Made by a program: the position numbers and the translations under genes
Shown here: positions 8,244 to 51,307 of the stretch, in pieces
Position numbering within the stretch: the first letter of the stretch is position 1
Layout: each line of letters starts with the position of its first letter
IMG/VR virus record: IMGVR_UViG_3300010267_000002
Source: a virus
DNA length: 56,778 nt
Reading direction: 5' to 3' (one strand)
Notes under the pieces: generated by a model
What the model was told of the DNA's origin: nothing
Seen by the model: the letters and a program-made list of their open reading frames with translations, nothing else
Databases searched by the model: none

Positions 8244-8290
8244 CTTTTGACCTGTCCTATCATTTATACCTAAATATTGTGCTATATCAA

Positions 8291-8312
8291 CACCTCCTGA
8301 TTATATTATACG
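8291..8312 (-). promoter_or_regulatory. Promoter/SD cassette CGTATAATATAAT-AGGAGGTG (minus-strand copy)
   Basis: The reverse complement reads CGCGTATAATATAATCAGGAGGTG. Near-identical cassettes precede terS (13987) and the scaffold gene (18657). Confidence 0.55.
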
Positions 8313-8377
8313 CGTTTTGTTCATTTGTTATAGCTTCAAGTGTAAAAAAAGTTAATCATATGATGTTTGTGTGTTAG

Positions 8378-8604
8378 TGTATAATAATGTATTAACATGT
8401 ATAATTGTGTACGATTTTGTGTATTGTGTATAATTCGTGAGGCCGGCCTTTATATATATGTGTAAAAAATAAAAATAAAATCTGTTATGTTATTATAACA
8501 ATAACAAAAAAGTTTTTAAAAAAATTTGAAAAAACTTAAAAATTAAATTGTACAAATAATACAAAATTATACACAATTTAACACAATTATACACTGATTA
8601 TACA
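8378..8604. promoter_or_regulatory. AT-rich dyad region: 3 x TGTATAAT on the left and 3 x ATTATACA on the right, flanking an A/T-tract centre. Candidate origin or operator region.
   Basis: TGTATAAT at 8378, 8398 and 8427. ATTATACA at 8566, 8586 and 8597. Central AGGCCGGCCT palindrome, plus A-runs and T-runs. Confidence 0.45.
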
Positions 8605-8734
8605 AGTATGTACAGATAATACAAAAAATACATGTTGTTCATGGATTGACTACAATCATATCTATGTGGTAGTGACTATGGTACACTGCGCCGCTGCTTC
8701 TACAATTAAACTATAGTAAAAGGAGGCTTAATCA

Positions 8735-8986
8735 ATATTTAATATTTGGGCCTTTCTTATTATTATATTATATCCTATATATATATACTTTTTTCATATT
8801 TTGATTGGAAAGAAAGAACTTTGTTTGCACTGTAGAACACATGTAATTACAAGGACCTTAGTAGTTATCCAGTCTTCACAAACTCTCAGACCTGACGCCG
8901 CTCTGGATTTGAAGCGGCGTCGGGGCGCTGAGAAGACATCTAGCCAGGCGCTGAGAGGACGCCTAGCACAAGCCAGGTCTTTTTAA
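8735..8986 (+). CDS. Possible small membrane protein with a non-canonical ATA start (very tentative)
   Basis: AGGAGG at 8721-8726, then 8 nt, then an in-frame ATA. The N-terminus IFNIWAFLIIILYPIYIYFFHILIG is transmembrane-like. The stop coincides with a terminator-like hairpin plus T-run at 8961-8987. The track only finds a TTG start at 8801, with no SD. Confidence 0.25.
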   Translation: MFNIWAFLIIILYPIYIYFFHILIGKKELCLHCRTHVITRTLVVIQSSQTLRPDAALDLKRRRGAEKTSSQALRGRLAQARSF

Positions 8987-9400
8987 GGCCAAACAGCTCC
9001 TGTGCCGCGGCGAAGCAACAATGTCACGACTCGCCGCTTCCCCGATCGCCGCTGTGCCGCCGCGCCGCCGCGGAGTCTGAAGCTAGAGGTCAGCCACGAC
9101 CGGACGGAGTGGTATTGTAGCTCCTCTTCGCAGCGGCGCTGCGGCGCCGAAGTACCATGCTGGGAAGGGGTTTTAGCGGCCGCATATCGCCGCCGCACGG
9201 TCGCGGCGGCGATGTGTTGGTTAGATTAGCTGCTAAGGTCCACTGTGGCATGAGTGGCATCGCCCCAGCGCCGCCTGGCCGTGGCTGGGAGAGACACATA
9301 AACGCGGCGACGCCTTGCTCACGCTGGCTGTGACGCGGCGCGTTTCACAGGCTAGTAGGTCATAGCCGGGCCAAGCCAATCTTGGTCGCTGCAGCGGGGT
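8860..9400 (+). other. GC-rich structured island A (non-coding; nested hairpins; motif-family member)
   Basis: Hairpins at 8894-8921 (9 bp), 9126-9152 (nested) and 9185-9212 (11 bp, ATCGCCGCCGC/GCGGCGGCGAT). Core GGGGTTTTAGCGG at 9167. GCTAG(T)AGGTCA boxes at 9082 and 9351. Confidence 0.6.
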
Positions 9401-9401
9401 A

Positions 9402-9428
9402 TAAAAAGCGCCCGCCGGGTGGCGGGCT
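9402..9428 (-). terminator. Rho-independent terminator of the leftward two-gene operon
   Basis: GCCCGCC-GGGT-GGCGGGC, with an A-run on the + strand (a T-run on the minus strand). Confidence 0.7.
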
Positions 9429-9451
9429 TATGAAAGCGAGGATGTGTTTAG

Positions 9452-9628
9452 CTATTCAGATTTGAGTTCGACAATCAGCTTGCTACCTTCTTTGTAGCCG
9501 ATCTGCTTGAGCGTCTGCTTTGGCACATACAGCGTGCCGATGTTTGGGACATCCAGAGGTCCATCAAGGACCTCTTTGAAGCGGATGGTGTTCTTCGTTT
9601 CTTTTTCAAACTCGAAGCTGACTCTCAT
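9452..9628 (-). CDS. Small protein (58 aa) with an AbrB/MazE-like C-terminal half
   Basis: GAGGAGG, then 8 nt, then the ATG. Reads MRVSFEFEKETKNTIRFKEVLDGPLDVPNIGTLYVPKQTLKQIGYKEGSKLIVELKSE*. Below the track cutoff. Confidence 0.6.
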   Translation of the reverse strand: MRVSFEFEKETKNTIRFKEVLDGPLDVPNIGTLYVPKQTLKQIGYKEGSKLIVELKSE

Positions 9629-9631
9629 GCT

Positions 9632-10408
9632 TTACACCTCCTCAGCCTCTTTGTTGCTGATAAGAGCCATTGCCTGTGCAAGCAAGTCTTTGGCATCAGC
9701 TGCTTTCAGGTTGTTGACCTCAACGCCGCTAAGCATCGCTGCTAGCTTCTCTTTGGTTTCATCTACAACTACAGTTCGTGTATCCTTTCGCAGAGCCTTA
9801 AGCTGTTCTTCAGCTGCAAGTAACGCTTGCCATCTTTCGTCCTCTTCGCTGAAGCCTTCTTTTGATTTCATGATGGACTTTTTAGACTGAACGTTTCTGA
9901 TCTCCTTGCGCAGTTTCTCCTGGTCAGCCTGCAGTGCTGCAAGCTCCTCAGCTGAATACTCAACTTTACCAGCGCTGCGGCGATTGCCACCGGCTGTTTT
10001 CTTTTTGCCTGTAACCAACCGAATGAGGTTCTCAGCTATTGCGCCGATCATCATTGTGCGGTAGTTGTCCATTGTCATGACCTTGCTCTTAGCGCGGGAG
10101 CGTTTTGACTGCTGGCTTTTCAGCATACCGTCCAGTGTGGCTTCATCAAGCTCTTTGAGGAACTCAACGTCAGCATCTGCTAAATTGTAAGCCTTTGCAA
10201 TGAGCTCATCCATTGCGCCGTGGTCTGACTTTGATTTTGCGATCAGCTCTTTGTACTCTTCAAAGTTGTCATTGATTGTCTTCAAGATGTCGTTGGCGAT
10301 TGTTGCTGCCAAACTTGTCAGCTGAGCGGTCCCTGCGAGACTTCTTGCGTTGGTAGCCGTCTCCTGGTTTTCCTGTTCGCTGAACAGATTCAACAGTTCT
10401 TTAGACAT
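9632..10408 (-). CDS. Helical protein of unknown function (shares the IRxxQSKK motif with 12946..13461 and 37503..37856)
   Basis: ATG 10408 lies after AAAGGAG. Reads MSKELLNLFSEQ... and contains KLRKEIRNVQSKKSIMKSK. The track start is 10465. Confidence 0.7.
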   Translation of the reverse strand: MSKELLNLFSEQENQETATNARSLAGTAQLTSLAATIANDILKTINDNFEEYKELIAKSKSDHGAMDELIAKAYNLADADVEFLKELDEATLDGMLKSQQSKRSRAKSKVMTMDNYRTMMIGAIAENLIRLVTGKKKTAGGNRRSAGKVEYSAEELAALQADQEKLRKEIRNVQSKKSIMKSKEGFSEEDERWQALLAAEEQLKALRKDTRTVVVDETKEKLAAMLSGVEVNNLKAADAKDLLAQAMALISNKEAEEV

Positions 10409-10504
10409 GGTAATCTCCTTTCGCACTGCACTCCCATGCAGCTGCCACACTGTAGTAGTGGCCAACTTATTTTGTTAAGCAGTAAATGCTCAACTCTTAC
10501 CTAT

Positions 10505-10539
10505 ATTATATCATGCAACTTCGCAGCTGTGTATATGTT
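10505..10539 (-). promoter_or_regulatory. Cassette promoter P1: AACATATACACAGCTGCGA box plus TGATATAAT
   Basis: The reverse complement reads AACATATACACAGCTGCGAAGTTGCATGATATAATATAGG. Confidence 0.6.
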
Positions 10540-10599
10540 TTTGAAAAACGATACAGTAGCTGCATCAAATTTTGAAATCGTGCAATAGCCGCCGTGGTT

Positions 10600-10895
10600 G
10601 TAGCACAGTTAAGTCAGGCTGGGGTTTTAGCGGCCGACCACATCTTCGCCTTGTCGAGGTAGCTGTGGTGGTGGCGCAGCGAAGTCAAGCTGTGGCGGGG
10701 TTTTAGCCGCGGTGGCGCAGCGAAGGCATGCTGTGGCGGGGTTTTAGCGGCCAGAGCCAGCCCTGGCAGGTGGAGGCTCTGCGATGCGGTAATGCGCCGT
10801 CCGGCCGAGGCTGGGTTATTGCTCACGCCCGCTGAGGCGGGCTGCAAGCTAGTAGATCATGGCCAGGCCAGGCTATTCATGAACTGCGCAGCCAA
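10600..10895 (+). other. GC-rich structured island B
   Basis: Three cores (10621, 10697, 10738) within about 2.5 units of a 41-nt repeat. TTGCTCACGC, hairpin GCCCGC/GCGGGC, then AGCTAGTAGATCATGGCCAGGCCAGGCTATTCATGAACTGCGCAGC. Confidence 0.6.
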
Positions 10896-10908
10896 GCTCA
10901 AATTTCCA

Positions 10909-10944
10909 TAACATATTTATTTCCGCGAAGAAATATGATATAAT
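10909..10944 (+). promoter_or_regulatory. Cassette promoter P2 (divergent copy) with TGATATAAT
   Basis: TAACATATTTATTTCCGCGAAGAAATATGATATAATATAAAT. Confidence 0.5.
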
Positions 10945-11012
10945 ATAAATATGGCCGAATATGGCTAAATAAATTATGCAGCTGCGATTCAGCAGCAGAA
11001 AGGTGGGTTATT

Positions 11013-11405
11013 ATGAACCGTTATTTTTGGGACAATGAGAGCTGTGCGGTTCTTACCGAGCAGGAGCTACGCGCGTTTTTCGACAAATTTAGAGAGATTG
11101 ACAGCGACTTCAGCCGTATGTACAGCACGTTTGAGCAATATGTGGAAGCGTGCTGCAGCGAGAGTGGTAGCTTGCAGCTACTGCGCAAGGGTCCAGGTCA
11201 ATTTAATTCCGCCGGCGGTGATGATGTCGGTGCAATATCTCAGTTTTTGGCTTTGCTAGAAGCCATCTGCAGCAGTGAAAAACCTGGCTGTGACGTCAAG
11301 ATAATCGTAGACGGATATATGCTCGAGGCATATGACCATCCAGCGTTGATGCAAGGCTTAATTAATGCGATAAGCGACTACTATGAAGAAGAATTATGCT
11401 GCTAG
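11013..11405 (+). CDS. Hypothetical Cys-rich acidic protein
   Basis: 130-aa ORF. SD AAAGGTGGG. Own promoter and terminator. Confidence 0.65.
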   Translation: MNRYFWDNESCAVLTEQELRAFFDKFREIDSDFSRMYSTFEQYVEACCSESGSLQLLRKGPGQFNSAGGDDVGAISQFLALLEAICSSEKPGCDVKIIVDGYMLEAYDHPALMQGLINAISDYYEEELCC

Positions 11406-11425
11406 CCACTGCGCCGCTAGCCACT

Positions 11426-11455
11426 GCGCAGCAAGCAATTGCTGCGCATTTTTAT
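11426..11455 (+). terminator. Rho-independent terminator
   Basis: GCGCAGCAA-GCAA-TTGCTGCGC followed by ATTTTTAT. Confidence 0.75.
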
Positions 11456-11459
11456 ATAT

Positions 11460-11668
11460 TTGAGCGTGGTACGGCGATGCCAAGTTGTGGCTGGGTTTTA
11501 GCCGCTATTGCATTGCATAGGCGTATCGTAGCCTCGAGGCTATAACTCAGCGTAGCCCAGCCGCGGCAGTATTGCGGTTGCAGTGTTGCTTACGCTGGTT
11601 GTGGCTGCAGAGACTTCCATAGCTAGTAGGTCACAGCCGGGCCAGGCTATTCATGAACTGCGCAGCTG
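11460..11668 (+). other. GC-rich structured island C
   Basis: Core at 11493, then GTTGCTTACGC, a hairpin, and AGCTAGTAGGTCACAGCCGGGCCAGGCTATTCATGAACTGCGCAGC. Confidence 0.6.
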
Positions 11669-11684
11669 TTAAATTTTTCTTATA

Positions 11685-11719
11685 AACATATACACAGCTG
11701 CGAGTCTATATGATATAAT
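11685..11719 (+). promoter_or_regulatory. Cassette promoter P3: AACATATACACAGCTGCGA box plus TGATATAAT
   Basis: AACATATACACAGCTGCGAGTCTATATGATATAATATAAT. Confidence 0.6.
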
Positions 11720-11756
11720 ATAATAGATAGAAATCATATTATTGGAGGGATTGGAT

Positions 11757-12194
11757 GTGAAGTACAAAGTGTTATCGCACACACACGAAATGACTGGAGG
11801 TTACTGCACAGCGAGTATATTCCGCTTGCAAGATGTTACTAATGGTGAGATACTGTATTTAATAATCGACGACTACTGCGGCACGTTAGCTACTGAAGAT
11901 TTTGTTTTGCAAGATGTTGATGACCGCTTTGTAATGATAATTGACACTTTTGAATTTGACACACTGTATGCTAATCACAAATATTTTGATTTGTACAGAT
12001 ACTGCTATAATGAATTTGTCAAAGAGGACTGTAGATATTTCAAATCCACGAAGTGGCTGCCCTACAGATTATTATCTGATAGTCTCCGTGAGCAAATTTC
12101 ACTTGGTTACTATCGCTGGCATAAACAAAATGTTGGTGACTGCTTTGAGACGGATGGTTATAGAATTATTTTTGCAGATGGATACAATAAATAA
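11757..12194 (+). CDS. Hypothetical protein
   Basis: GTG 11757 lies 7 nt after GGAGGG. The track start is 11742. Confidence 0.65.
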   Translation: MKYKVLSHTHEMTGGYCTASIFRLQDVTNGEILYLIIDDYCGTLATEDFVLQDVDDRFVMIIDTFEFDTLYANHKYFDLYRYCYNEFVKEDCRYFKSTKWLPYRLLSDSLREQISLGYYRWHKQNVGDCFETDGYRIIFADGYNK

Positions 12195-12223
12195 CTACGC
12201 AACAAAAATAAATTGAGTTTAAT

Positions 12224-12250
12224 CAGCAGCTAAGCGCTGCTGTATTTTTC
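12224..12250 (+). terminator. Rho-independent terminator
   Basis: CAGCAGC-TAAGC-GCTGCTG followed by TATTTTTC. Confidence 0.75.
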
Positions 12251-12321
12251 TGCAAGTTGTGCGGCGTTGCATTGCCAAGCTGAAGCTGGGTTTAGCGGCC
12301 GGTTATTATCTCGCCTGAGCA

Positions 12322-12687
12322 GGGTTTTAGCCGCGGTGGCGTGGCTTTGCCAAGCTGTGGCTGGGTTTTAGCCGCGGTGGCGTGGCTTTGCCAAGCTGTG
12401 GCTGGGTTTTAGCCGCAGTGGCGTGGCTTTGCCAAGCTGTGGCTGGGTTTAGCCGCGGGGTACAGTCCTGCCAAGCTGTGGCAGGGTTTTAGCCGCGGGG
12501 TACAGTCCTGCCAAGCTGTGGCAGGGTTTTAGCCGCGGTGGCGTGGCTTTGCCAAGCTGTGGCTGGGTTTTAGCCGCAGTGGCGTGGCTTTGCCAAGCTG
12601 TGGCTGGGTTTTAGCCGCGGTGGCGTGGCTTTGCCAAGCTGTGGCTGGGTTTTAGCCACGGTGGCGTGGCTTTGCCAAGCTGTGGCT
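12322..12687 (+). repeat. Tandem array of nine units of about 41 bp (39-41 bp), consensus GGGTTTTAGCCGCGGTGGCGTGGCTTTGCCAAGCTGTGGCT, preceded by a degenerate copy at 12274-12321
   Basis: Units start at 12322, 12363, 12404, 12445, 12484, 12524, 12565, 12606 and 12647. There are four sequence variants. No ORF of 60 aa or more is reported on either strand. Confidence 0.95.
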
Positions 12688-12750
12688 GACTGCAGGCGGC
12701 GGGACTAGTAGGTAGTCACCTTGCAGTCCGGCTGAGGCTGCGCTGTGTTG
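12688..12750 (+). other. Island D 3' module (bulged hairpin carrying an ACTAGTAGGTAGTCA box)
   Basis: GACTGCAGG-CGGCGGGACTAGTAGGTAGTCA-CCTTGCAGTC. Confidence 0.5.
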
Positions 12751-12754
12751 CAAT

Positions 12755-12800
12755 AAAAAAGGACCGCAGCATTTACTGCGGTCCTTTCTGATTATTTTTT
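12755..12800. terminator. Bidirectional rho-independent terminator
   Basis: AAAAAA-GGACCGCAG-CATTTA-CTGCGGTCC-TTTCTGATTATTTTTT, with A-run and T-run on the two sides. Confidence 0.75.
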
Positions 12801-12886
12801 ATCCATTTCTTAAGTTCTTCGAATGTGAATGGCGTGCCAGTTTCCCGGCAGTACTCTTCGAATCTTTTCAGGTCTTTATAGTTCAT
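12773..12886 (-). CDS. Possible 37-aa protein downstream of 12946..13461
   Basis: Reads MNYKDLKRFEEYCRETGTPFTFEELKKWIKNNQKGPQ*. Weak SD AAGGA. The stop lies inside the terminator stem. Confidence 0.35.
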   Translation of the reverse strand: MNYKDLKRFEEYCRETGTPFTFEELKKWIKNNQKGPQ

Positions 12887-12945
12887 CTCAGATTCATCCT
12901 TTCTTTTTTGACTGGCTGGGGCTTTGAAGCCCCAGCCTCGGTCGT

Positions 12946-13461
12946 TTACATCAAGCTTTTCAGAAGCTCGATTATTTTTTCTTGACTTAAGTTTCCTGAA
13001 CTTTCTATTGTGTCGATTATCGTCTGAACATCGGTTTTTCTGACATGCTCATTGTCAACTGGCTTGATTTTTTCACGACGTTCGATCAGCATCTTTTCAA
13101 TCTCGCAAGCTTTTCTGTATTCGTCATTGTCACCCTCTATATCCGTCAGCCATTTTGTGAGAGTCTTTTTTGATTGAATCGATCTGATTGCTTTAATAGT
13201 TTCGTCGTAGTCAAGCTTGTCGACGTCCTCTTGTGTGTATTGTGTGACAGGCTTTTCTTTAGGGTCTAAGAGCTGGCGAGCTTCTTTTAAGACTTGCTCA
13301 TACTTGAGCACTTCGGCCATTTCCTTTTCGTATGAGCTTTTGCCTTTTTGCTTTTTAAGCCGACACTTGACTGACTGAATCCTTTTAAGCTCTCTTTTGA
13401 CCTTTTCTACGTCGTTGTCAAATTTGTTAGCAACTTTCTCGATCTCTTTTAAGTTTGTCAT
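12946..13461 (-). CDS. Helical protein of unknown function (IRSIQSKK motif; paralogue-like to 9632..10408)
   Basis: 171-aa ORF. SD GAGG lies upstream. Charged, coiled-coil-like composition. Confidence 0.7.
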   Translation of the reverse strand: MTNLKEIEKVANKFDNDVEKVKRELKRIQSVKCRLKKQKGKSSYEKEMAEVLKYEQVLKEARQLLDPKEKPVTQYTQEDVDKLDYDETIKAIRSIQSKKTLTKWLTDIEGDNDEYRKACEIEKMLIERREKIKPVDNEHVRKTDVQTIIDTIESSGNLSQEKIIELLKSLM

Positions 13462-13634: not shown

Positions 13635-13654
13635 ATCCAAAAATTATAACATTT

Positions 13655-13850
13655 TTTTGGCTATTATGCACAGGCCTGGCACCGCGGCGCAAGATCCAGT
13701 CAACAATCCGAAACCCCCAAAGAATAAACCAAGCCCAGTAGTATCGCGGCGGCGCATCCACACCGGAAAAATATGGTTAACCCCAAAGAATAGAAGCATT
13801 CTAGCGCCCCAACCCCGGGGCCCCCCATATTTAGGTGGGCCATTAGAATA
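13655..13850 (+). other. GC-rich island E, including a candidate cos region (GCGCCCCAACCCCGGGGCCCCCC at 13804-13826)
   Basis: A G/C tract with a CCCCGGGG palindrome about 190 bp upstream of terS, in a genome with terS-HNH-terL order. GGCTATT and CACAGGC boxes are shared with the other islands. Confidence 0.35.
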
Positions 13851-13986
13851 GTCCTGTAGTTTATAATTGACTTGTTACGCGTCCGTGAGTAAGGCCGAGG
13901 GTATTTATATATTAAAGATACAACGTACGTGTAACGAGTTGGCTTACTTCTAGACATTCTTGTAGCTATATCGGGTGACTGTGTGA

Positions 13987-14009
13987 CGTATAATATAAAT
14001 AAGGAGGTG
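13987..14009 (+). promoter_or_regulatory. Promoter/SD cassette CGTATAATATAAATAAGGAGGTG upstream of terS
   Basis: Near-identical to 18657-18678 and to the minus-strand copy at 8291-8312. Confidence 0.55.
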
Positions 14010-14014
14010 TTGTT

Positions 14015-14791
14015 ATGCTTATTAAATGTCCTAAGTGTGGGCAAGAGAAAGAAGCTCATCCAACAGACACCCACCTTTGTGTAGATTGTGTGCATGCTGA
14101 GAATAATCGGCTTACATATTATAGACAACACCAAGGCGACTGGATAGCAGAAGCTAAGGAACAAGGGATAGCACCTTGGTTAATGCAACCAGGCGAAACA
14201 CAGTGGGAGTACACTGTGTGGACAGCTTACCGTGATAGCTACCCAGGTAAGAAACCAACTTATAGCGACGTGGCGAAGCAGTTAGGCACTACCTACAATG
14301 TAGTTAAGAAGATAGCGCAGCGATGGAGTTTTCCTGTACGTATGCAGCTATGGATGGCTGAATGTGACAGAATTACAATGTTGCAGCGCAAAGAAGAGAT
14401 TCTTAGCATGAATAAAGCACATATCGACATGGCAACTAAGTTGCGAGAGAAACTCAACGCCGCTATAGACGCTATCGAGCCTAGCACATTGAAACCAAGT
14501 GAGATAGCGTCGCTCGCTAAATTGTCTGCGGATATGGAGCGCAAGGCTAGGATAGACTCTGAGGCCCAAGAGGACATGAGGAGACAATTGCTTGTAGATA
14601 ACTCCAACCCAGAACTTAAGAAGACACAAACTAAGCAGAGTGACCTCGGCGAAGTGCTGCAGATTCTATTGAAGGCAGGTGCGCTAAAGAACATTACCAC
14701 AATTGGTGTCAAAGAGACAACTACAAGAGAAGTAGTAGCTCGTGATGACGAAGGCAGCATAGCTGCTATGATACAAGAGGAGGACAACTAA
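14015..14791 (+). CDS. terS: Terminase small subunit
   Basis: Position immediately upstream of HNH and terL. N-terminal zinc ribbon, HTH-like YSDVAKQLGTTYNVVKKIAQRW, and a coiled-coil C-terminus. Confidence 0.7.
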   Translation: MLIKCPKCGQEKEAHPTDTHLCVDCVHAENNRLTYYRQHQGDWIAEAKEQGIAPWLMQPGETQWEYTVWTAYRDSYPGKKPTYSDVAKQLGTTYNVVKKIAQRWSFPVRMQLWMAECDRITMLQRKEEILSMNKAHIDMATKLREKLNAAIDAIEPSTLKPSEIASLAKLSADMERKARIDSEAQEDMRRQLLVDNSNPELKKTQTKQSDLGEVLQILLKAGALKNITTIGVKETTTREVVARDDEGSIAAMIQEEDN

Positions 14792-20824: not shown

Positions 20825-21225
20825 TGTTTGTAGTTAGGCGCTCTTTTAGGGGACCACGAGGACCTATATCTGCTGGCTCTATTGTTGAGCCAGCAGATAT
20901 AAGGAACTTTAGGTACCGACTGCAAGAGAAGCATATCATAGAAGTTACCGAGCAGAACTTCAATGGCTATCGTGCATTTTTTAAACAGCGTTTTGGAGTA
21001 GACATTGGTGCAGCAAAGGAACTTGAAGAGCGTAAAAAGATGCTTGCTTCAAAATGTGCTAAACTAAAGCTAGAACTGCCCGAGGACCTAACTATTGAGC
21101 AGCTTGAACAAGCAATAATTGACGCTGAGGCAAAAGCTGAGGCAAAAGCTGAGGCAAAAGCTGAGGCAAAAGCTGAGGCAAAGGTTGCTGCAGAGGTAAA
21201 AGTTGCAAAAGTTACTACTAAATAG
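20824..21225 (+). CDS. Hypothetical head-associated protein with an (AEAK)n tail
   Basis: 133-aa ORF coupled to the capsid stop (TAATG). Confidence 0.6.
   Translation: MFVVRRSFRGPRGPISAGSIVEPADIRNFRYRLQEKHIIEVTEQNFNGYRAFFKQRFGVDIGAAKELEERKKMLASKCAKLKLELPEDLTIEQLEQAIIDAEAKAEAKAEAKAEAKAEAKVAAEVKVAKVTTK
21124..21183 (+). repeat. 5 x 12-bp tandem repeat GCTGAGGCAAAA encoding AEAK repeats
   Basis: Direct reading. Confidence 0.9.
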
Positions 21226-24053: not shown

Positions 24054-27000
24054 TTGGCAAACTTCGCAAATCTAACAGCACAACTAAATCTTAATATACA
24101 GAACTTTGCACGGAATATGCAGAAGGCATCTGCCTTAGCTAGCAAGTTTGCTTCTGATCTACAGGGTAAGATAAATATTGGTATGGTGGAACCTGCAAAG
24201 AAAGCAAAGTTTGAATTTAAGGATGTAGCGCGTATTGTACAAGGTATCATAGTATCTAAAATTTTCTATAGCAGTTTGAATGCAATAAGACGCGCAACAG
24301 ACGCTGTATGGGAATTTTCAAAAGAGTTAGAGTATGCCAAGATGGTATACTCTAACCTATTTGGTGACACTGAGCTAGCTCAAGAGTTTATAAATGTTCT
24401 TAAAGATTTTGCTGCAGTTACACCATTCTCTTTTAAGCAGTCTGAAGAAGCGGCGAAGAGACTGCTAGCTTATGGTATAGAAGCAAAGAATGTTATGTTT
24501 GTGATGCAAGGCGTGCTATCAGCAGCTACCATTCAAGGTACTGATGCCGTTATAGAACCTATCTCCAGGGCCTTTGGTCAGATATACACCAAGGGTAGGT
24601 TAATGAATGAAGAGATGCGCCAGCTTGCTGAAGCCGGTATACCTGCATATGAAATATTGCAGGAGAAACTAAATCTAACCGCTGAAGAGCTTAGGAATCT
24701 AGGCAGAACGGCGATTCCTGCTCATGTAGCTATTAATGCACTTGTTGAAGGTATCAATGAGAGATTTGGAACTACTCTGCAAGCTGCTTCTAGTACTACT
24801 CAGGGTATAATAAGCAATATTGTAGATAACTCTACAATGTTGTTTGCCGGCATATTTGAGCCTTTTACAGAGTACTTAAGAGGCGCTCTAGGACGTTTCG
24901 GTGAGTTTATTAACGAGCTTAGAAGCATTTACGAGCTGAAGGGTCTTGGCGGTGTGTTCGAGAAACTAATACCGCCAGCACTGCAGCAAGATATAAAAGT
25001 GTTTATAGCTAATCTCAAGATTTTATGGGACATTATAAAGAGTAACTTGGCTTCGGCCTTTAAGCTTCTTGGTAGTCTACTTAAAGGGTTACTATATGCG
25101 TTTAATGCTTTAGCACCAGCTATATATACAGTTATTGGTACATTAGCTGGCTTATTAAAAATTATCACTAGTAATGAAAAACTAATGAAGGGCTTGACCA
25201 CTGCAATATTGGCCGCGGCGGCTGCGTGGGCTGTATACAAGCTTCAAGCGGTTGCAGCAAGTATAACTACTGTAGTAATCAAAGGAATAGTTGGTGCAAT
25301 AAAAGTTTTAGTAGCTGCTATGAACTTTGTGGTGGCTCATCCTATATGGGCTTTATTAGCTTTGGGTGTCGGTATTTTTATAGCACTGACTGGTGCTAGT
25401 GATAAGTTTAGAGATTCTATAAACAAACTATTTAGTGGGTTTACTAAACTTAGTGGTATGGATCCAAATAAAATGCTGCTGCCTGATTCTAAGGATAGAG
25501 CTAGTGACCTAGATAAATTCAATAAAGCTCTTGATGGTACTGGAAAAGGAATGGATGAGCTATCAAAGAAAGCGAATAAAGCTTCTAAGAGCTTACTGAG
25601 CTTTGATGAGGTATTCTCACTAAAGAGCCCTGACGAAGGAAATGCTGCTGATCAATGGGAAGATTTTATGGGCATCTTCGATGGTGCTGGTTTAGACTTA
25701 TCTGATATGCAGATTGAGTTTCCTGATGTCGGAGGTATAGCTACAGACTTTGTAGACAATCTTATAGGAGCTCTTGGTGGTAAAGATAAACTATTAGGTG
25801 CCGGCATAGGAGGCCTACTTGGTGCTGCTCTTGGGACTATAATTGGTGGTCCTATTGGTACTAAGATTGGTGGTATACTTGGAGCTATAGCAGGTTGGTT
25901 CTGGGATGATCTAGCTAAGCAGTTGGGTCTTACAGATGTTGGGGCTATTGCTTTGCCAATATCAACTGGGCTAGGAGCGGCTATAGGCGCCATTGCTGGC
26001 GGCCCAGCAGGAGCTTTAGTAGGTGGCGGTATTGGACTGCTAGTAGGTTGGTTTGTTAATGAGATAGCAAAGGCTTTAGAAACAGGTGACTGGTCTACTG
26101 TTGCAACTGCAGGAGGTATTGGAATAGGTGCTGCTATAGGAATGATAGCAGGCGGCCCAGCAGGAGCTTTAGTAGGTGGCGGTATTGGACTGCTAGTAGG
26201 TTGGTTTGTTAATGAGATAGCAAAGGCTTTAAAAACAGGTGACTGGTCTACTGTTGCAATTGCAGGAGGTACTGGAATAGGTGCTGCTATAGGAATAATA
26301 GCAGGCGGCCCAGCAGGAGCTTTAGTAGGTGGCGGTATTGGACTGTTAGTAGGTTGGATAATAGATAATATAGCAAAGGGTTTAGAAACAGGCGACTGGA
26401 GTATGATAGGGCTCTCTGTTGGTACAGGTCTAGGAGCGGCTATAGGCTTAGTTGCAGGAGGCCCATTAGGTGCAGTAGTTGGAACAGCAATAGGTGCGTT
26501 AGTTGGATGGATAACTGATATGTTTATAGAAGGTTTTTCTACAGGTAACTGGGATGTATCTGGTATATCATTAGGCTTAGGTACTGGAATAGGTGCTGCT
26601 ATAGGAATGATAGCAGGTGGACCTGTTGGTGCACTTATTGGAGGGGCTATTGGTGCTTTGATAGGTTGGCTAGTAGGGCTTATATCAGACAACTGGGGAG
26701 CTATAACTGATTGGTTTAAGCAAGCTTGGGCTGATATTGGGAAGTTCTTTGCAGGTATTGGCGAGTGGTTTGCACAGGTTGGAAAAGAAATAGGGGACTT
26801 CTTTGCAGATATTGGCGAGTGGTTAGATCAAGCTTGGACTGATATTACCACATGGTTTACAGATTTATTAAAGACTATAGGTGAATTTTTTGTTAAGATA
26901 TGGGACACTATCAAAGAAAAACTTAGTGGTGCCTGGGATTCTGTTAAAGAGTTCTTCCAAAATATATGGGACACTATCATAGAAAAGCTTAGTGGTGTCT

Positions 27001-27902
27001 GGGATTCTGTTAAAGAGTTCTTCCAAAATATATGGGACACTATCATAGAAAAGCTTAGTGGTGTCTGGGATTCTGTTAAAGAGTTCTTCCAAAATATATG
27101 GGACACTATCAAAGAAAAGCTTAGTGGTGCCTGGAACTCTATTAAAGAGCTCTTCCAAAAGATATGGGACACTATCAAAGAAAAGCTTAGTGGTGCGTGG
27201 GCGTCCGTCAAAGAGTTCTTCCAAAAGATATGGGACACTATCAAAGAAAAGCTTAGTGATGCCTGGAACTCTGTTAAAGAGCTCTTCCAAAAGATATGGG
27301 ACACTATCAAAGAAAAGCTTAAGGGGGCATGGTCGTCGGTTACTGAATTCTTTAGTGGCATGTATGACACAATACGTACTAAGATAACAGATATGTATGA
27401 CAGTGTTAAATCTGGCATAAGCAATATTTACCAGGCATTTAAGAACTGGCTTTCTGATATGTGGAATAATGTATTTGGTAAGTTCTTTGACTGGATAAAC
27501 AGTGCAATAAATAAGCTTAAAGATTTCTTTGGTCTGAATAGCAAAGCTCAAAATACTGACATTTCGTATGCTACTACAGGCGGATCAACTGGTACGGTAA
27601 CTATGGGGCATGCTCTTGGTGGTGTATTCAACAGAGAACACATAGCTAGATTTGCAGAAGGAAATAAAGCTGAAGCAATTATACCATTGGAAAATGAATC
27701 GGCCATGAAGCCATTTGTAGATGCAGTAGCTAATGGGGTTTCATCAGCTTTAATGCCCCTCATAGCTAACATATCGGTAGGACAGCAATCTCAACTTCAA
27801 CCACTATATGTTGGTACGTTGATTGCTGATGAGAGAGGGCTAAAAGAACTAAGCCGTAAGCTAGATATAATACAGCTAGAAGAAAAAGCAAGGAGGGGAT
27901 AA
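24054..27902 (+). CDS. Tape measure protein
   Basis: 1282 aa with internal repeat families. Position supports the call. Confidence 0.9.
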   Translation: MANFANLTAQLNLNIQNFARNMQKASALASKFASDLQGKINIGMVEPAKKAKFEFKDVARIVQGIIVSKIFYSSLNAIRRATDAVWEFSKELEYAKMVYSNLFGDTELAQEFINVLKDFAAVTPFSFKQSEEAAKRLLAYGIEAKNVMFVMQGVLSAATIQGTDAVIEPISRAFGQIYTKGRLMNEEMRQLAEAGIPAYEILQEKLNLTAEELRNLGRTAIPAHVAINALVEGINERFGTTLQAASSTTQGIISNIVDNSTMLFAGIFEPFTEYLRGALGRFGEFINELRSIYELKGLGGVFEKLIPPALQQDIKVFIANLKILWDIIKSNLASAFKLLGSLLKGLLYAFNALAPAIYTVIGTLAGLLKIITSNEKLMKGLTTAILAAAAAWAVYKLQAVAASITTVVIKGIVGAIKVLVAAMNFVVAHPIWALLALGVGIFIALTGASDKFRDSINKLFSGFTKLSGMDPNKMLLPDSKDRASDLDKFNKALDGTGKGMDELSKKANKASKSLLSFDEVFSLKSPDEGNAADQWEDFMGIFDGAGLDLSDMQIEFPDVGGIATDFVDNLIGALGGKDKLLGAGIGGLLGAALGTIIGGPIGTKIGGILGAIAGWFWDDLAKQLGLTDVGAIALPISTGLGAAIGAIAGGPAGALVGGGIGLLVGWFVNEIAKALETGDWSTVATAGGIGIGAAIGMIAGGPAGALVGGGIGLLVGWFVNEIAKALKTGDWSTVAIAGGTGIGAAIGIIAGGPAGALVGGGIGLLVGWIIDNIAKGLETGDWSMIGLSVGTGLGAAIGLVAGGPLGAVVGTAIGALVGWITDMFIEGFSTGNWDVSGISLGLGTGIGAAIGMIAGGPVGALIGGAIGALIGWLVGLISDNWGAITDWFKQAWADIGKFFAGIGEWFAQVGKEIGDFFADIGEWLDQAWTDITTWFTDLLKTIGEFFVKIWDTIKEKLSGAWDSVKEFFQNIWDTIIEKLSGVWDSVKEFFQNIWDTIIEKLSGVWDSVKEFFQNIWDTIKEKLSGAWNSIKELFQKIWDTIKEKLSGAWASVKEFFQKIWDTIKEKLSDAWNSVKELFQKIWDTIKEKLKGAWSSVTEFFSGMYDTIRTKITDMYDSVKSGISNIYQAFKNWLSDMWNNVFGKFFDWINSAINKLKDFFGLNSKAQNTDISYATTGGSTGTVTMGHALGGVFNREHIARFAEGNKAEAIIPLENESAMKPFVDAVANGVSSALMPLIANISVGQQSQLQPLYVGTLIADERGLKELSRKLDIIQLEEKARRG
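25795..26700 (+). repeat. About six repeats of roughly 144 bp encoding Gly-zipper, transmembrane-like segments (GGPAGALVGGGIGLLVGW...TGDWS)
   Basis: Read from the translated tape measure protein. Confidence 0.8.
26898..27359 (+). repeat. Seven near-perfect 66-bp repeats (IWDTIKEKLSGAWDSVKEFFQN), flanked by degenerate copies
   Basis: Read from the DNA and its translation. Confidence 0.9.
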
Positions 27903-31668: not shown

Positions 31669-31700
31669 GGGTGGTAACCAAGTATAGGAGGTGTAAGGTA

Positions 31701-33719
31701 ATGAATGTAGAACAAAAAGTAAATATTCATAATAGGTTTGATGTGCATATCGACAACATCGAAACAGGAGAACATCGAGAATTTGTTGGGTACAACATTA
31801 TCCTTAACCAGATGTGGACAAGGTTGTGTGAGGGTCTTTCGTATTTCGAATATATTCATTTTGGTACAGGGACTGGAACACCAATACCAGAGGGAACTGG
31901 CTTGTTTAGTCATCTAGGAACGAAGCGAGCAGTGACAGAAGAGACTATTAAAGCCCTTCCAGTATCGAGTTGGAAACGAAAAATTGTTCTGAACCCAGAA
32001 GAGTTTGTAGGCTTTAAGATTAGTGAAGTTGGTATAGCTTTTGACAGTGATGTTTCGAGTCTAGTTACACATGCAATGCTTAAGGATAGTGAGGGTAATG
32101 CAATCTCGATTACCAAAAAGGATACAGATGTTGTAACTATTTATGCAACCGTGTTTATAACATTTATAAATAACCTTTCAGAGTTAAAGTTGATTGGTAT
32201 GCCCAATAACAATCAATTAATCAACTATTTAACTGGAGGTAATGCCCCACGTGGTTCTTTTGGGTTAAGTACAATTGAAAATCCATATTCAAATTTGGGA
32301 ACATCCGCTGTAGTTACATGGACTCCAGATATCCCAAATAGAAAAAGAAGAACAAATACGTCAAGGTTTGGAATTACATCTGGAAATGGTCATGTTAAAT
32401 ATTTAAACTTTACGGATCTATTTAGTCTAAAATTACCTGCACCCGATATATTTTCAGGTCAACCTTACACGGGTGTCCATATTGGAAGTGGCGATGGGGT
32501 TAATAAAAGTTTTATGCTACCGTCCGCCAATATTAGACAAAGCAGTTTAGCTATTAAAAAGAACGGTGTGGTTGTCTCAGATTATATTACAAATATAAAA
32601 TACCAAGAAAGCAATTCCAGAATTGCCAACCCTGCATCCTTGCCGGCAGGCAATGGGCAAGGAGTAGCACTTACACCCGATGGCACTGTTATGGCAGTGG
32701 CTCATATTACCTCACCATATGTCGCCACGTATGACAGGGTTGACGGGGTGTGGGTGAAGAGACCTGATCCTGCATCCTTACCGACGGGTACTGGGCGAGG
32801 AGTAGCACTCACATCTGACGGTACTGTTATGGCAGTTGCACATGATCGCTCACCATACATCACAACATATGACTGGGATGGAGAAGCATGGGTCAAGAGA
32901 CCTGACCCTGCATCCTTGCCGATAGGTAACGCCAGCGGAGTAGCACTCACGTCTGACGGTACTGTTATGGCAGTGGCACATTGGGACTCCAGTGGCTCAC
33001 CATGCATCACAATATATAACTGGGATGGAACGGAATGGGTCAAGAGACCTGACCCTGCATCCTTGCTGACAGGTAACGCCAGCGGAGTAGCACTCACACC
33101 TAACGGTACTGTTATGGCGGTTGCACATGATCGCTCACCATACATCACAACATATGACTGGGATGGAGAAGCATGGGTCAAGAGACCTGACCCTGCATCT
33201 TTACCAGCGCGCACTGGTACCGGAGTAGCACTCTCACATGATGGCACTGTTATGGCAGTGGCACATTGGGACTCGCCATACATCACTACATATGACTGGA
33301 TTGACGGAGCATGGGTAAAGAGACCTAACCCTGCATCCTTACCGACGGATACTGGGCGAGGAGTAGCACTCACATCTGACGGTACTGTTATGGCAGTTGC
33401 ACATGATGGCTCACCATACTTCACCATGTATGAATGGATTGACGGGGAATGGGTCAAGAGACCTAATCCTACGTCCTTACCAAGGGGCGATGGGCATGGA
33501 GTAGCACTCACACCCGATGGCACTGTTATGGCAGTGACACACTGGAACTCACCATACATCACCACATACATGGGTTTACCATTTACCCAAATAACTTTCG
33601 ACACACCACCTGCTTTGGATGATGTGATTACTGCAGACTATACTGTGGATGGAGTGTATAAGACCGACCAGTATGTCATAGATGTGTCATTCTCAATTCA
33701 ATTCGGGGAGGGGGTGTAG
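31701..33719 (+). CDS. Tail fibre / receptor-binding protein with a C-terminal seven-repeat (beta-propeller-like) domain
   Basis: ATG 31701 lies after AGGAGG. Seven repeats of about 45 aa: PASLPxGxGxGVALTxDGTVMAVAHxxSPYITTYDWDGxxWVKRPD. Confidence 0.7.
   Translation: MNVEQKVNIHNRFDVHIDNIETGEHREFVGYNIILNQMWTRLCEGLSYFEYIHFGTGTGTPIPEGTGLFSHLGTKRAVTEETIKALPVSSWKRKIVLNPEEFVGFKISEVGIAFDSDVSSLVTHAMLKDSEGNAISITKKDTDVVTIYATVFITFINNLSELKLIGMPNNNQLINYLTGGNAPRGSFGLSTIENPYSNLGTSAVVTWTPDIPNRKRRTNTSRFGITSGNGHVKYLNFTDLFSLKLPAPDIFSGQPYTGVHIGSGDGVNKSFMLPSANIRQSSLAIKKNGVVVSDYITNIKYQESNSRIANPASLPAGNGQGVALTPDGTVMAVAHITSPYVATYDRVDGVWVKRPDPASLPTGTGRGVALTSDGTVMAVAHDRSPYITTYDWDGEAWVKRPDPASLPIGNASGVALTSDGTVMAVAHWDSSGSPCITIYNWDGTEWVKRPDPASLLTGNASGVALTPNGTVMAVAHDRSPYITTYDWDGEAWVKRPDPASLPARTGTGVALSHDGTVMAVAHWDSPYITTYDWIDGAWVKRPNPASLPTDTGRGVALTSDGTVMAVAHDGSPYFTMYEWIDGEWVKRPNPTSLPRGDGHGVALTPDGTVMAVTHWNSPYITTYMGLPFTQITFDTPPALDDVITADYTVDGVYKTDQYVIDVSFSIQFGEGV
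32628..33590 (+). repeat. Seven tandem repeats of about 135-147 bp encoding the propeller-like blades
   Basis: Long stretches are identical between the repeats (for example GGTACTGTTATGGCAGT(G/T)GCACAT). Confidence 0.85.
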
Positions 33720-36476: not shown

Positions 36477-37145
36477 ATGTTTAAAGTCAAGATAGGTGTT
36501 TTGGTGTTGGCGATCATATCATTAATAGTTCTGCAACATATTATTCCAAAGGATGAGCCTGCAGTGGAGGAATGTAGTATCGCTGCGACGCCGGAATGTA
36601 GTATCGCTGCGACGCCGGAATGTAGTATCGCTGCGACGCCGGAACCAATAGTAGAAGTTATTGAACAAGAGCCTGTTATGCCAGTAGAAAAACCGGATGA
36701 ACAAGGTCCTGAGATCTACAATGTACCGTTAGATGCTGCGCTGCAGCGCTATACATACAACTTATGTGTAGATTATGAGATTGAAGAGTACTACCCGTTA
36801 GTCCTTGCTGTTATGTGGCGTGAAAGTGAATTTGTGCCAACCCTAATTAGTAAGACAAATGACTACGGTCTCATGCAGATTAACAAGATTAACCACGAAT
36901 GGTTGTCTGAGAAACTTGGAATAACAGACTTCTTAGATGAAGAACAAAATATACATGCAGGTGTATTTATGCTGTCGTTATACCTACATAAATATGAGGA
37001 TATAGATAAGGCTTTGATGGCCTACAACATGGGTGAGGCTGGTGCAAAGAAACGCTGGGACGCTGGGATCTACTCTACTAATTATACGCGGACCACGCGT
37101 GAGCGATTAGAGCTAATACTGTCCGGCGAAGGTTACCAAAAATAA
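36477..37145 (+). CDS. Membrane-anchored lytic transglycosylase (SLT domain)
   Basis: N-terminal transmembrane segment. Motif MWRESEFVPTLISKTNDYGLMQIN. Confidence 0.8.
   Translation: MFKVKIGVLVLAIISLIVLQHIIPKDEPAVEECSIAATPECSIAATPECSIAATPEPIVEVIEQEPVMPVEKPDEQGPEIYNVPLDAALQRYTYNLCVDYEIEEYYPLVLAVMWRESEFVPTLISKTNDYGLMQINKINHEWLSEKLGITDFLDEEQNIHAGVFMLSLYLHKYEDIDKALMAYNMGEAGAKKRWDAGIYSTNYTRTTRERLELILSGEGYQK
36570..36641 (+). repeat. 3 x 24-bp tandem repeat encoding ECSIAATP
   Basis: Direct reading. Confidence 0.9.
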
Positions 37146-40166: not shown

Positions 40167-40542
40167 GGTATATACAGACGAAGCCGCCTTACTAAAGGCT
40201 GTAATAAGGTGGCTTGAACCGCAACAACGCAACGGTATAAAAGTTATACGTGTCTGCGACAGATACCATTCTGGATACAGCGACTTATTCATATGTGCAA
40301 GAGGCCGTTTCGTGGTTGCCGAGTTAAAAGATGACACAGGTACAGCGACGCCGCACCAAGAGATATTCATTAAAGAGATGATTGCAGCTGGTGCAGTGGG
40401 AGGAATCTGTAGAACTGTGAAGGACGTTGCAGACCTTATTGAAAAAGCTTTATATTGTCAATGTGGCCACACAGGCTCGCTACTTAAGTACTGTGCATAT
40501 TGCGGTAAAGAAATACAGTACGAAGGAGAAGACTATGGATAA
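40150..40542 (+). CDS. VRR-NUC domain nuclease with a C-terminal zinc ribbon
   Basis: Motif SGYSDLFICARGRFVVAELKDDTGTATPHQEIF. Confidence 0.75.
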   Translation: MRIDSRVYTDEAALLKAVIRWLEPQQRNGIKVIRVCDRYHSGYSDLFICARGRFVVAELKDDTGTATPHQEIFIKEMIAAGAVGGICRTVKDVADLIEKALYCQCGHTGSLLKYCAYCGKEIQYEGEDYG

Positions 40543-41092
40543 GATAATAGAGGACAATGCGGGTTTAATATTCGCGCAACTTAAACGTTTTAATGTTATG
40601 CATGACCCTGAAGCGCAGAGTATAGGCTACGAGGCCTTATGGAACGCCGCTATAACATATGATGAATCCAAGGGCTATAAGTTCTCAACGTACGCTACGT
40701 GCTGCATCTACAACGCGCTTGGCTCATACATACGGACGCTAAACAGAAAGCGCCAGTTAGAAGTTGCATCATATAACAACATAGCTTACCAAGAAGATGG
40801 GACCAAACATGAATATTTAGAGTTGCTTTCAACTAATATTGTAGATACAGAACAAGAGCTATTACAGAAGGAGCTTTATTGCACTCTAAATAGAGCTATA
40901 CAAATATCGTATGATAGATTGACAAACCCAAAGCACAAGGCAGTTATTAAGGTGTGGCGCGATGCTGAATACAATATCTCAAATAAGGAGATAGCTGCAG
41001 CCGTAGGAGTCTCTCAGCCGTATGTCAATCATATTATAAATACATTTAAGAATAGTGTCAAAAAAAGAATGAGGGGGTATTTCAATGAATGA
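40535..41092 (+). CDS. Sigma-70 family sigma factor (regions 2 and 4)
   Basis: Region 2-like EALWNAAITYDESKGYKFSTYATCCIYNALGSYIR. Region 4 HTH-like SNKEIAAAVGVSQPYVNHII. ATG 40535. Confidence 0.75.
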   Translation: MDKIIEDNAGLIFAQLKRFNVMHDPEAQSIGYEALWNAAITYDESKGYKFSTYATCCIYNALGSYIRTLNRKRQLEVASYNNIAYQEDGTKHEYLELLSTNIVDTEQELLQKELYCTLNRAIQISYDRLTNPKHKAVIKVWRDAEYNISNKEIAAAVGVSQPYVNHIINTFKNSVKKRMRGYFNE

Positions 41093-50906: not shown

Positions 50907-50909
50907 AGT

Positions 50910-51296
50910 ATGCCAGTAAATCCATTAGAGCATATGCTCAAAATGCAGAAAGAATTTCAGGATCGCGTCGACCCGCGCTACAACAGTGGCTTAAAAGAAC
51001 GCGCGGCATTCCTTAGAGACCACTTCGTATTCTGCAATCAGGAACTACATGAGATGCTGTATGAGGTACCATTTTTCAAACACTGGAAGAACTACAGTAA
51101 TATGACAGATGAAGAGATTGCTGAGGCATTTGATAAAGCAAAGAATGAGCTGATTGACGCTTGGCATTTCTTTATGAATTTATCAATAGGTCTAGGTATG
51201 GATGCAGAAGAGTTCTATCAACGTTATTTAGATAAGCATAAAGAAAATATAAGGCGCCAAGATGAAGGGTACGACCACACTATGAAACATATTTAA
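50910..51296 (+). CDS. All-alpha NTP pyrophosphohydrolase (dimeric dUTPase / MazG-like)
   Basis: Pattern QELHEM...KHWK...ELIDAWHFFMN...YLDKHKENIRR. Confidence 0.6.
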   Translation: MPVNPLEHMLKMQKEFQDRVDPRYNSGLKERAAFLRDHFVFCNQELHEMLYEVPFFKHWKNYSNMTDEEIAEAFDKAKNELIDAWHFFMNLSIGLGMDAEEFYQRYLDKHKENIRRQDEGYDHTMKHI

Positions 51297-51307
51297 GGGG
51301 GATAATC

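Follow-up and report, generated by a model that had tools for sequence, protein, structure and literature searches.

Polar, GC-rich tandem-repeat modules among early cassettes near the probable cos of an uncultured phage lineage

In T4-type phages, PeSL elements are composites of a terminator and a strong host-type early promoter that flank small orphan open reading frames (ORFs) in a plastic region of the genome, where insertions, deletions and replacements are found (PMC2839356, PMC4122927). The first-step-transfer DNA of phage T5 has conserved untranslated repeat regions lying among variable early ORFs, together with an injection stop signal (bioRxiv 10.1101/866236). Top-strand-only, right-end-clustered Chi sites have been described for the cos phages LLS (20:3) and MD8 (32:0) (PMC12315714). 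The genome considered here, IMG/VR virus record IMGVR_UViG_3300010267_000002, was analysed as a stretch of 56,778 nt (the window), and carries a tandem array of nine units of about 41 bp upstream of its terS gene. The window has a 123-bp terminal overlap, and so represents a complete, circularly assembled phage genome of ~56.66 kb. An earlier, sequence-only reading by a model had proposed that the array encodes a decoy or sponge RNA or, alternatively, is a protein-loading array of DNA sites.

The array is the expanded last member of a family of four paralogous, GC-rich, non-coding modules, which were located by repeat analysis and sequence reading at ~8880-9400, 10590-10895, 11460-11670 and 12255-12750 (modules 1 to 4). 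This membership had been missed in the earlier reading. At 58-66%, the GC content of the modules exceeds the 40-42% average of the genome. A short leader opens each module, 1-10 units follow, and a tail (...GCTGWGGCTG-N7-9-CTAGTAGRT...) closes it. A unit consists of GGGTTTTAGC-SGC, ~14 variable nt and then CAAGCTGWGGCT; written degenerately, its core is G(G/C)(G/T)TTTTAGC-SGC. Outside the nine-unit array there are single cores at 9168, 10622 and 11493, and 10670-10748 is a second 41-bp array, of two copies. The junction motif AAGCTGTGGC-N-GGGTTTTAGCSGC recurs at 10687, 10728 and 11482, always on the + strand, and the cores at 9168 and 10622, which lack the full motif, are on the + strand as well.

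Within module 4, Tandem Repeats Finder recovered the array at 12322-12688 (period 41, 9.0 copies, 92% matches, score 580) with the consensus GGGTTTTAGCCGCGGTGGCGTGGCTTTGCCAAGCTGTGGCT, in agreement with the nine-unit, 41-bp structure seen by inspection. Cutting at the unit boundaries reproduced the order of variants given previously, i.e., a, a, a' (CAG), b (39 bp), b (40 bp), a, a', a, a'' (CACGG). The array had been said to follow a degenerate copy of the unit; a repeat is present there, but it is a conserved leader-unit subtype (GGGTTTAGCGGCCGGTTATTATCTCGCCTGAGCA, 12288-12321) that recurs in the related contigs L002 and L004. The statement that the interval is non-coding holds, as no ORF of at least 40 aa overlaps 12217-12945 on either strand, and each of the six frames of the array contains three stop codons. 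The window has 10 copies of the 24-nt junction motif, and 100 shuffles gave 0. The array is G+T-rich on the top strand (type A units, G 40% and T 28%). Several lineages have 7-11 units in a row at the terminal module, and a count of nine is therefore typical there.

Pattern scans turned up the same architecture in 16 IMG/VR contigs, most of them from 50-60 kb genomes, and in a contig from an Oscillospiraceae metagenome-assembled genome (MAG; L010). It is also present in 39 loci retrieved via relatives of p258, a conserved protein encoded between modules 1 and 2, and in eight further metagenomic contigs. Over 135 distinct unit contexts GGGTTTTAGC has zero entropy, while its flanks vary. The core differs by clade among more distant relatives, which retain the architecture (GCTTTTATGC, GCTGCTTTTAGC, AAGCTTTTAGCC and GCGTTTTAGC); the GCTGCTTTTAGC core forms an array of 11 x 38 bp in L044, and the AAGCTTTTAGCC core lies in 37-bp units. 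A genome scan for the two-core pattern returned only phage-like contigs (L009 and L010) and four chance hits (L006, L007, L008 and L011), indicating that the element is not a host chromosomal repeat. It is absent from Rfam and from the literature searched, and a metagenome scan for the left flank of the array gave no hits.

No DNA-level similarity was found to GenBank phages, the nearest TerL among them being 44% identical. Metagenomic homologue clusters number 1619 for p258 and 1292 for p171 (a second conserved protein, encoded beside the terminal module), and none is annotated. The lineage is therefore abundant but uncultured. The extended -10 promoters and a SigK/SigE-like sigma factor are consistent with a host of the Clostridia type. 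The sigma factor gene (40427-41092) suggests a spore-forming member of the Clostridia as host, and phage-specific promoters. A further hint of a spore-forming host comes from L072, where a gene for a small acid-soluble spore protein (PF00269; 1738-2169) lies between the p171 gene and terS.

The cores are strictly polar. The 47 loci that have three or more cores give a strand count of 400:0. The core-bearing strand is that of terS in 37/37 cases and of terL in 21/21, and is opposite to the p171 gene in 40/40; the p258 gene is opposite to the cores in 30 loci and on the same strand in 8. Core polarity is independent of the local direction of transcription, module 1 being found in a leftward context. 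The last core is 1.15-2.25 kb upstream of terS (3.2 kb at one locus). In the window, cores span 9168-12659, the probable cos and terS being at most ~5 kb downstream. None was found elsewhere in the 56.7-kb genome (GTTTTAGC, 13 inside modules and 0 outside), so the core is not a genome-wide polar motif, and the G-rich k-mers flanking it show only ordinary coding-strand bias. The gene order terS, HNH, terL is that of HNH-dependent cos phages, and a G/C-rich tract (CGCCCCAACCCCGGGGCCCCCCAT, ~13805-13828) lies upstream of terS, which suggests that cos is just upstream of terS, at ~13650-13990. The modules would then occupy the last ~5 kb of the packaged genome.

The region containing the modules is organised as follows.

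8880-9400, + strand: module 1; 62% GC, one core at 9168-9180 (GGGTTTTAGCGGC), end motif CTAGTAGGT at 9352-9360, several long palindromes, and repeat families D4, D7, D8 and D9.
9632-10408, - strand: p258 gene, encoding a conserved 258-aa protein; flanked by modules 1 and 2.
10590-10895, + strand: module 2; cores at 10622, 10698 and 10739, a two-copy 41-bp array (10670-10748), end motif at 10849-10857.
11013-11405, + strand: ORF of a variable early cassette (130 aa, orphan); has a TGnTATAAT-type promoter of its own and is followed by a terminator (11425-11448); a homologue occurs only in L002.
11460-11670, + strand: module 3; one core at 11493-11505, end motif at 11623-11631.
11757-12194, + strand: ORF of a variable early cassette (145 aa, orphan); absent from the close relative L002.
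12224-12242, + strand: intrinsic terminator of the upstream cassette (7-bp stem, then TATTTTT); keeps rightward transcription out of module 4.
12255-12321, + strand: module 4 leader (12255-12287) and conserved 34-bp leader unit (12288-12321, GGGTTTAGCGGCC...), the latter also in L002 and L004.
12322-12688, + strand: module 4 tandem array, nine units of 39-41 bp.
12689-12750, + strand: module 4 tail; end motif CTAGTAGGT at 12705-12713 and GCTGAGGCTG at 12731-12740.
12758-12787, both strands: bidirectional terminator, mainly terminating the leftward p171 operon; shields module 4 from the right.
12946-13461, - strand: p171 gene, encoding a conserved 171-aa protein; adjoins the terminal module in every case (40 of 40 loci, on the opposite strand).
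13650-14791, + strand: probable cos region (~13650-13990, placed by position and sequence), then terS (14015-14791); the two set the axis along which every module is oriented.

All four modules are outside the neighbouring transcription units, and the order around them is terminator, module, promoter. Module 1 sits between a leftward terminator (9410-9427) and a leftward promoter-like site (~8753-8779; inverted repeats I5/I11). Module 2 sits between outward-facing promoters (leftward, 10533-10505; rightward, ~10910-10948), with a leftward terminator at 10567-10549. Module 3 lies between the rightward terminator at 11425-11448 and a rightward promoter at 11691-11719, and module 4 between convergent terminators. 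Both terminators flanking the array had been recognised previously and were recovered here (12224-12242 on the + strand, 12758-12787 on both strands), as was the lack of any promoter-like site between the first of them and the array. The small orphan ORFs between modules each have their own extended -10 promoter (~10910-10948 and 11691-11719) and an intrinsic terminator. Of 54 distinct modules across relatives, 52 are shielded by a terminator or an outward-facing promoter on one side or more, 35 of them on both, and the terminal array always lies between convergent terminators.

Several other sequence features accompany the modules. GCNGC pentamers in the 8860-12760 region reach 22-50/kb in modules compared with 5/kb genome-wide, i.e., they are 4-10 times denser. 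The palindromes CTGCGCAG and GCAGCTGC recur beside the cassette promoters and may mark a regulator or a restriction/methylation target. To the left of module 1, a very AT-rich control region (8250-8860, 26-34% GC) separates divergent genes and contains two inverted sets of ~10-bp periodic repeats, TGTATAATTG and AAATTATACA (Tandem Repeats Finder, 8398-8435 and 8545-8625; inverted repeats I2, I4 and I6). It resembles an operator or origin, and AT-rich arrays of 9 or 18 bp are found at a comparable place in the distant relatives L031 and L049.

The modules share with PeSLs the presence of a terminator and a promoter flanking orphan ORFs, and the occurrence of insertions, deletions and replacements at the elements when relatives are compared. 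They differ in that a GC-rich tandem module of 100-500 bp, polar and with an invariant core, is inserted between terminator and promoter, and in being found in one ~5 kb region by cos. PeSLs are small, occur across several hyperplastic regions and owe their definition to promoter and terminator functions, so the modules are more than a small composite of that kind. In T5, as here, one end of the genome has several non-coding repeat regions set among variable early ORFs, the ORFs are less conserved than the repeats, and nine direct repeats occur in a row. The T5 regions have been proposed to act in cis via a DNA-binding protein, as is suggested here for the modules. However, the T5 repeats lie in a long terminal repeat and are rich in inverted repeats, palindromes and DnaA boxes, whereas those of the present phage are strictly direct, and no DnaA boxes were found in 8860-12760. 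The present phage is of the cos type, with HNH and terminase genes. Lacking these defining features, the element is not a member of the PeSL or T5 type. It is best regarded as a variant of the known kinds of phage intergenic repeat.

Two homology breakpoints fall exactly at cores. Collinear similarity of ~90% ends at 10710 in the comparison with L004 and at 11505 in that with L002, each being the last base of a core, and L002 is missing the cassette at 11757-12194. Searches of the ORFs against Pfam, PHROGs and NCBIfam found no site-specific recombinase or integrase, and site-specific recombination at modules was rejected on this ground. The phage encodes a RecE-like exonuclease and a Holliday-junction resolvase.

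Contigs with proteins identical to those of the flanking genes are present in several other samples (13-15 contigs per query). Every short-read contig examined (L061-L070) ends inside the array, having come from one side or the other, and this includes a near-complete genome of 56.5 kb (L063). Left and right contigs of sample ERZ27245368 rebuild the same nine-unit order, and other samples differ in the order or number of units despite identical flanking proteins. The concern that the array might be an assembly artefact is thereby removed: it is real, recurrent and polymorphic, and an obstacle to assembly. Given the contig ends and the differences between samples, the count of nine is strain-specific or uncertain.

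The proposed decoy or sponge RNA rested on a 9-bp, G.U-containing stem at each unit junction. In the window's own units, 73% of the stem positions are paired. In 137 distinct units of other phages the figure falls to 51%, the same on either strand and no better than in slid-register controls (0.25-0.51), and arms taken from different units pair at least as well as the two arms of one unit (z = -0.77). Watson-Crick covariation was detected neither in a mutual-information scan of 135 distinct unit contexts nor in a scan with average product correction of 200 contexts that included variant cores. Rfam gave no match within the modules, at gathering thresholds or at E <= 10. Weak matches were confined to the terminator (12753-12870), where 12756-12789 scores 17.7 bits against the CsrC model at its 3' end (gathering score 61), the sole hit to any CsrB/CsrC/RsmX-Z model. 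The 367-nt array contains 0 GGA motifs, and no tRNA or tmRNA genes were found. With an unconserved stem, no covariation, no promoter and no Rfam match, the RNA sponge is not supported.

Other readings of the unit fared no better. An alternative stem register (GGCUG/CGGCC) is neither conserved nor covarying. Mimicry of the tRNA-Lys anticodon loop (loop CUUUUAG) fits only type C units, and not types A or B. A series of weak terminators would need a hairpin before the T-run, and only b units have a good one; types C and D have none. A promoter for the phage sigma factor inside the units is not indicated, as they are A-poor and carry no -10-like element, although this factor may read a different sequence.

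The other half of the sequence-only reading, that of protein-loading, recombination or terminase sites near a genome end, fits better and points in the right direction: the core is invariant, its strand is fixed, the modules lie in the last ~5 kb before the probable cos, and homology breaks at cores. One further observation concerns the DNA duplex. A partial, loop-less 8-bp palindrome (GCGGCCGC or GCCGCGGC) follows TTTTA, the tested pair being complementary in 93/200 units compared with 65.9 +/- 5.6 in shuffles, and the palindrome is perfect in 26/200. Having no loop, it can only matter on duplex DNA; the excess is suggestive only, since the units are not mutually independent.

The two conserved proteins of the region were examined as possible readers. 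The AlphaFold model of p258 is all-helical (pLDDT 80), with two basic QSK[KR]S motifs, and that of p171 is also helical (pLDDT 78). The two are weakly paralogous (BLASTP E = 6e-4) and have in common a basic [IL][KR]x[IV]QSKK[ST] helix; p258 has a second, invariant copy of the motif, MLKSQQSKRSRxKSK. p258 is a candidate binder of the modules. A search of p258, p171, TerS and HNH for residues that follow the switch between core types gave none, except for position 106 of p258, inside the invariant basic motif. This residue split type A from type B cores in 19 sequences but failed on eight independent loci (S or T with type A), and was rejected as a specificity residue.

The interpretation tentatively preferred is that the array is the terminal member of a set of polar, cis-acting DNA modules, i.e., arrays of recognition sites that double as homology for exchange. 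The cores would be recognised as DNA by a factor that acts in one direction, dictated by the genome end, possibly the machinery of packaging, ejection or end processing, or else a coating protein of the region, and more units would mean more sites. In this reading the modules are in consequence the homology tracts for cassette swaps and for the expansion and contraction of unit number, which is probably part of their role. In its favour are the invariance of the core sequence, the absolute polarity, the fixed position, the placement outside transcription units, the recurrence of the element across the lineage, the breakpoints at cores, the changing unit number, the tendency toward a palindrome, and the published cases of conserved repeat regions or polar motifs at a phage genome end (bioRxiv 10.1101/866236, PMC12315714, PMC2839356 and PMC4122927). 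The anatomy, conservation, polarity, placement, breakpoints and copy-number polymorphism are shown, and action on DNA, a specific reader and a connection with the genome end are inferred.

Several observations weigh against this interpretation. No factor reading the core was identified among the candidates examined, and neither p258 nor p171 matched a family or fold in Pfam, PHROGs, NCBIfam, PDB sequence and profile searches, or AlphaFold models searched via Foldseek. Core type switches between sister phages (HNH 98%, TerS 89% and p258 87% identical), something that a strict one-protein, one-site model does not easily accommodate, and none of five linked proteins tracks core type. Unit spacing is unphased: in type A it varies over 34-48 bp and 74-78 bp, and in other clades it is 37-38 bp. 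Terminators and promoters are inevitably found near intergenic modules, so that only the placement beyond terminators and before promoters is informative. The absence of a sigma-70-type promoter is compatible with transcription by the phage's SigK/SigE-like sigma factor, or with terminator read-through. Lastly, RNA of module 4 folds at -279 kcal/mol on the + strand (z = -8.1) compared with -190 on the - strand. This advantage is attributable to G+T richness and self-pairing between tandem units, and the G+T skew is missing from type C and D units.

Among the alternatives, a Chi-like hotspot for end protection and recombination is the most sharply defined form of the DNA interpretation, but is unlikely. 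An AddAB/RecBCD-type enzyme that entered the right end, after the terminase cut at cos or after injection, would travel leftward and meet the modules from the 3' side of the top strand; a short motif inside the conserved block would switch it from degradation to recombination, and tandem copies would raise the chance of recognition. The right-end, top-strand-only Chi class of cos phages (PMC12315714) likewise has many copies, on the top strand when the terminase is at the left, near the exposed right end, and the 400:0 ratio, the agreement with terS in 37/37 and the concentration in the last ~5 kb before cos give the same geometry. Type A units are G+T-rich with Chi-like strings (GCTGWGGC, GGTGGCG and AGCGG), breakpoints and copy-number changes would be explained directly, and no transcription is required. 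However, the invariant core of 10-13 nt is embedded in a conserved block of ~24 nt, far longer than known Chi sites of 5-8 nt. The Chi of LLS and MD8 is an 8-mer that is scattered through coding DNA and equals the host's own, whereas the block described here is found only in non-coding modules, core k-mers being absent outside them, and sister phages, which probably have hosts in common, differ in core type (the only clue to the host is one Oscillospiraceae MAG contig, L010). The G+T skew does not extend to type C and D units, and the phage has its own RecE-like exonuclease and Holliday-junction resolvase, whereas Chi-rich lambdoid phages are without recombination modules. The low standing given to the Chi explanation reflects the block length, the absence of the block elsewhere, the change between sister phages and the phage's own exonuclease. 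Least probable of all is an iteron or centromere array for a replication initiator or partition protein, comparable to P1 incA/incC, F sopC or P4 ori/crr, in which clusters would cooperate by looping or handcuffing. The F sopC centromere is 12 x 43 bp, and its ~40-bp tandem units with one conserved site each are matched by the 41-bp units with one core each. Clusters flank the conserved p258 gene as iterons flank rep genes, module 1 adjoins the very AT-rich region of 10-bp periodic repeats (8250-8860), and the phage encodes a primase-helicase, a polymerase not being found among the ORFs searched. The inverted-repeat site of sopC has its counterpart here only in a partial 8-bp palindrome beside the core. 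The modules are dispersed, unit spacing is variable, and strict polarity over 4 kb with a fixed relation to terS would not be expected of such arrays. No ParA/ParB, TubZ/TubR, Rep or integrase genes, and no other recognisable initiator, were found among the ORFs searched against Pfam, PHROGs and NCBIfam, the phage looks virulent, and there are no DnaA boxes in 8860-12760.

Transcription of the + strand into a multi-hairpin non-coding RNA, which would titrate a protein in the manner of CsrB or mimic the RNA target of a defence system (type III antitoxin or RNA anti-CRISPR), is distinctly unlikely. It draws on the stronger + strand folding of module 4, achieved via G.U pairs, on the restriction of all copies to one strand, and on the terminator downstream of the array; in addition, the phage has its own sigma factor, which may use promoters of another kind. 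Unit lengths of 37-41 nt resemble those of type III antitoxin repeats, and nine units of 41 nt fall within the 34-45 nt range of such repeats. Yet all modules lie beyond terminators, no promoter-like site precedes the array, and the junction stem is unconserved and does not covary. The folding advantage stems from G+T richness and tandem self-pairing, and the skew is missing in types C and D. In the comparison with CsrB/RsmZ, no transcript unit with its own promoter and terminator, no GGA loops and no Rfam model were found in the modules. The ToxI order of promoter, repeats, terminator and toxin is likewise absent, as the genes downstream (12803-12895 and 12946-13461) are both on the - strand, convergent with the array, and leave no same-strand toxin gene; the neighbours include no ToxN, AbiE or other family of the Pfam/PADLOC type (the PADLOC library itself was not searched). 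As to a CRISPR array or an RNA anti-CRISPR, the units abut without spacers, and no Rfam CRISPR-DR model matches in the modules. It is more improbable still that the modules have no dedicated function and are minisatellite-like linker DNA (PeSL- or BOX-like), maintained by gene conversion and unequal crossing-over and providing passive homology only. BOX elements of the pneumococcal chromosome (boxA-boxB(n)-boxC) have ~45-bp middle units in variable number, and the modules have the same A-B(n)-C layout in their leader, n units and CTAGTAGRT tail. Copy-number polymorphism, breakpoints at modules, the exchange of core types between sister phages and the failure to find a reader all agree with this explanation. 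Against it, the 10-nt core has stayed invariant while proteins diverged to 50-60% identity and the rest of the unit varied freely, and the 400:0 polarity and fixed position would be hard to keep without selection. BOX elements are dispersed genome-wide in both orientations, whereas the modules occupy one region on one strand and have not spread to other intergenic regions of the genome.

Repeats of other kinds occur elsewhere in the window. A tape-measure-like ORF of 1282 aa (24054-27902) contains in-frame repeats of 153 bp x 2.6 (25998-26399) and 66 bp x 6.5 (26895-27321), and a tail-gene ORF of 682 aa (31671-33719) contains in-frame repeats of 138/276 bp x 6.7 (32629-33568). Perfect tandem repeats are found at 36569-36644 (24 bp x 3.2, GGAATGTAGTATCGCTGCGACGCC) and at 21124-21182 (12 bp x 4.9, GCTGAGGCAAAA), the latter containing GCTGAGGC, a string common in the modules. 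The gene for the RecE-like exonuclease lies by a nucleotide-metabolism cluster (49866-54231) with a MazG/dUTPase-like gene, ThyX, thymidylate kinase and dCMP deaminase; a DNA polymerase was not found among the ORFs searched. DNA base modification is possible.

A broader proposal, which is regarded as rather doubtful, is that the modules represent a new class of polar genome-end DNA signals in cos phages of Gram-positive anaerobes, read directionally from the cos end. The machine that reads them could be a host AddAB-type nuclease, for which they would form a purpose-built Chi island, a terminase nearing the terminal cos, or a checkpoint of ejection or entry like the injection stop signal of T5. 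Such signals might be operated by the two early proteins with QSKK helices, p171 and p258, that bracket the region. They would set the fate of the DNA end that is first exposed, and drive the exchange of early and anti-defence cassettes.

The practical consequence of the arrays is that they systematically break short-read assemblies. Near-complete contigs of 56 kb end in them, and this affects completeness calls in viromics. In a lineage that is abundant in metagenomes, the modules form a non-coding, conserved element whose 10-nt core is invariant, whose polarity is absolute and which keeps a fixed place adjacent to the packaging site. If they are read by end-processing, packaging or entry machinery, then they would provide a handle on how cos phages of Gram-positive hosts protect or meter their first-exposed end, on why their early, probably anti-defence, cassettes evolve so rapidly, and on how new ones are captured.

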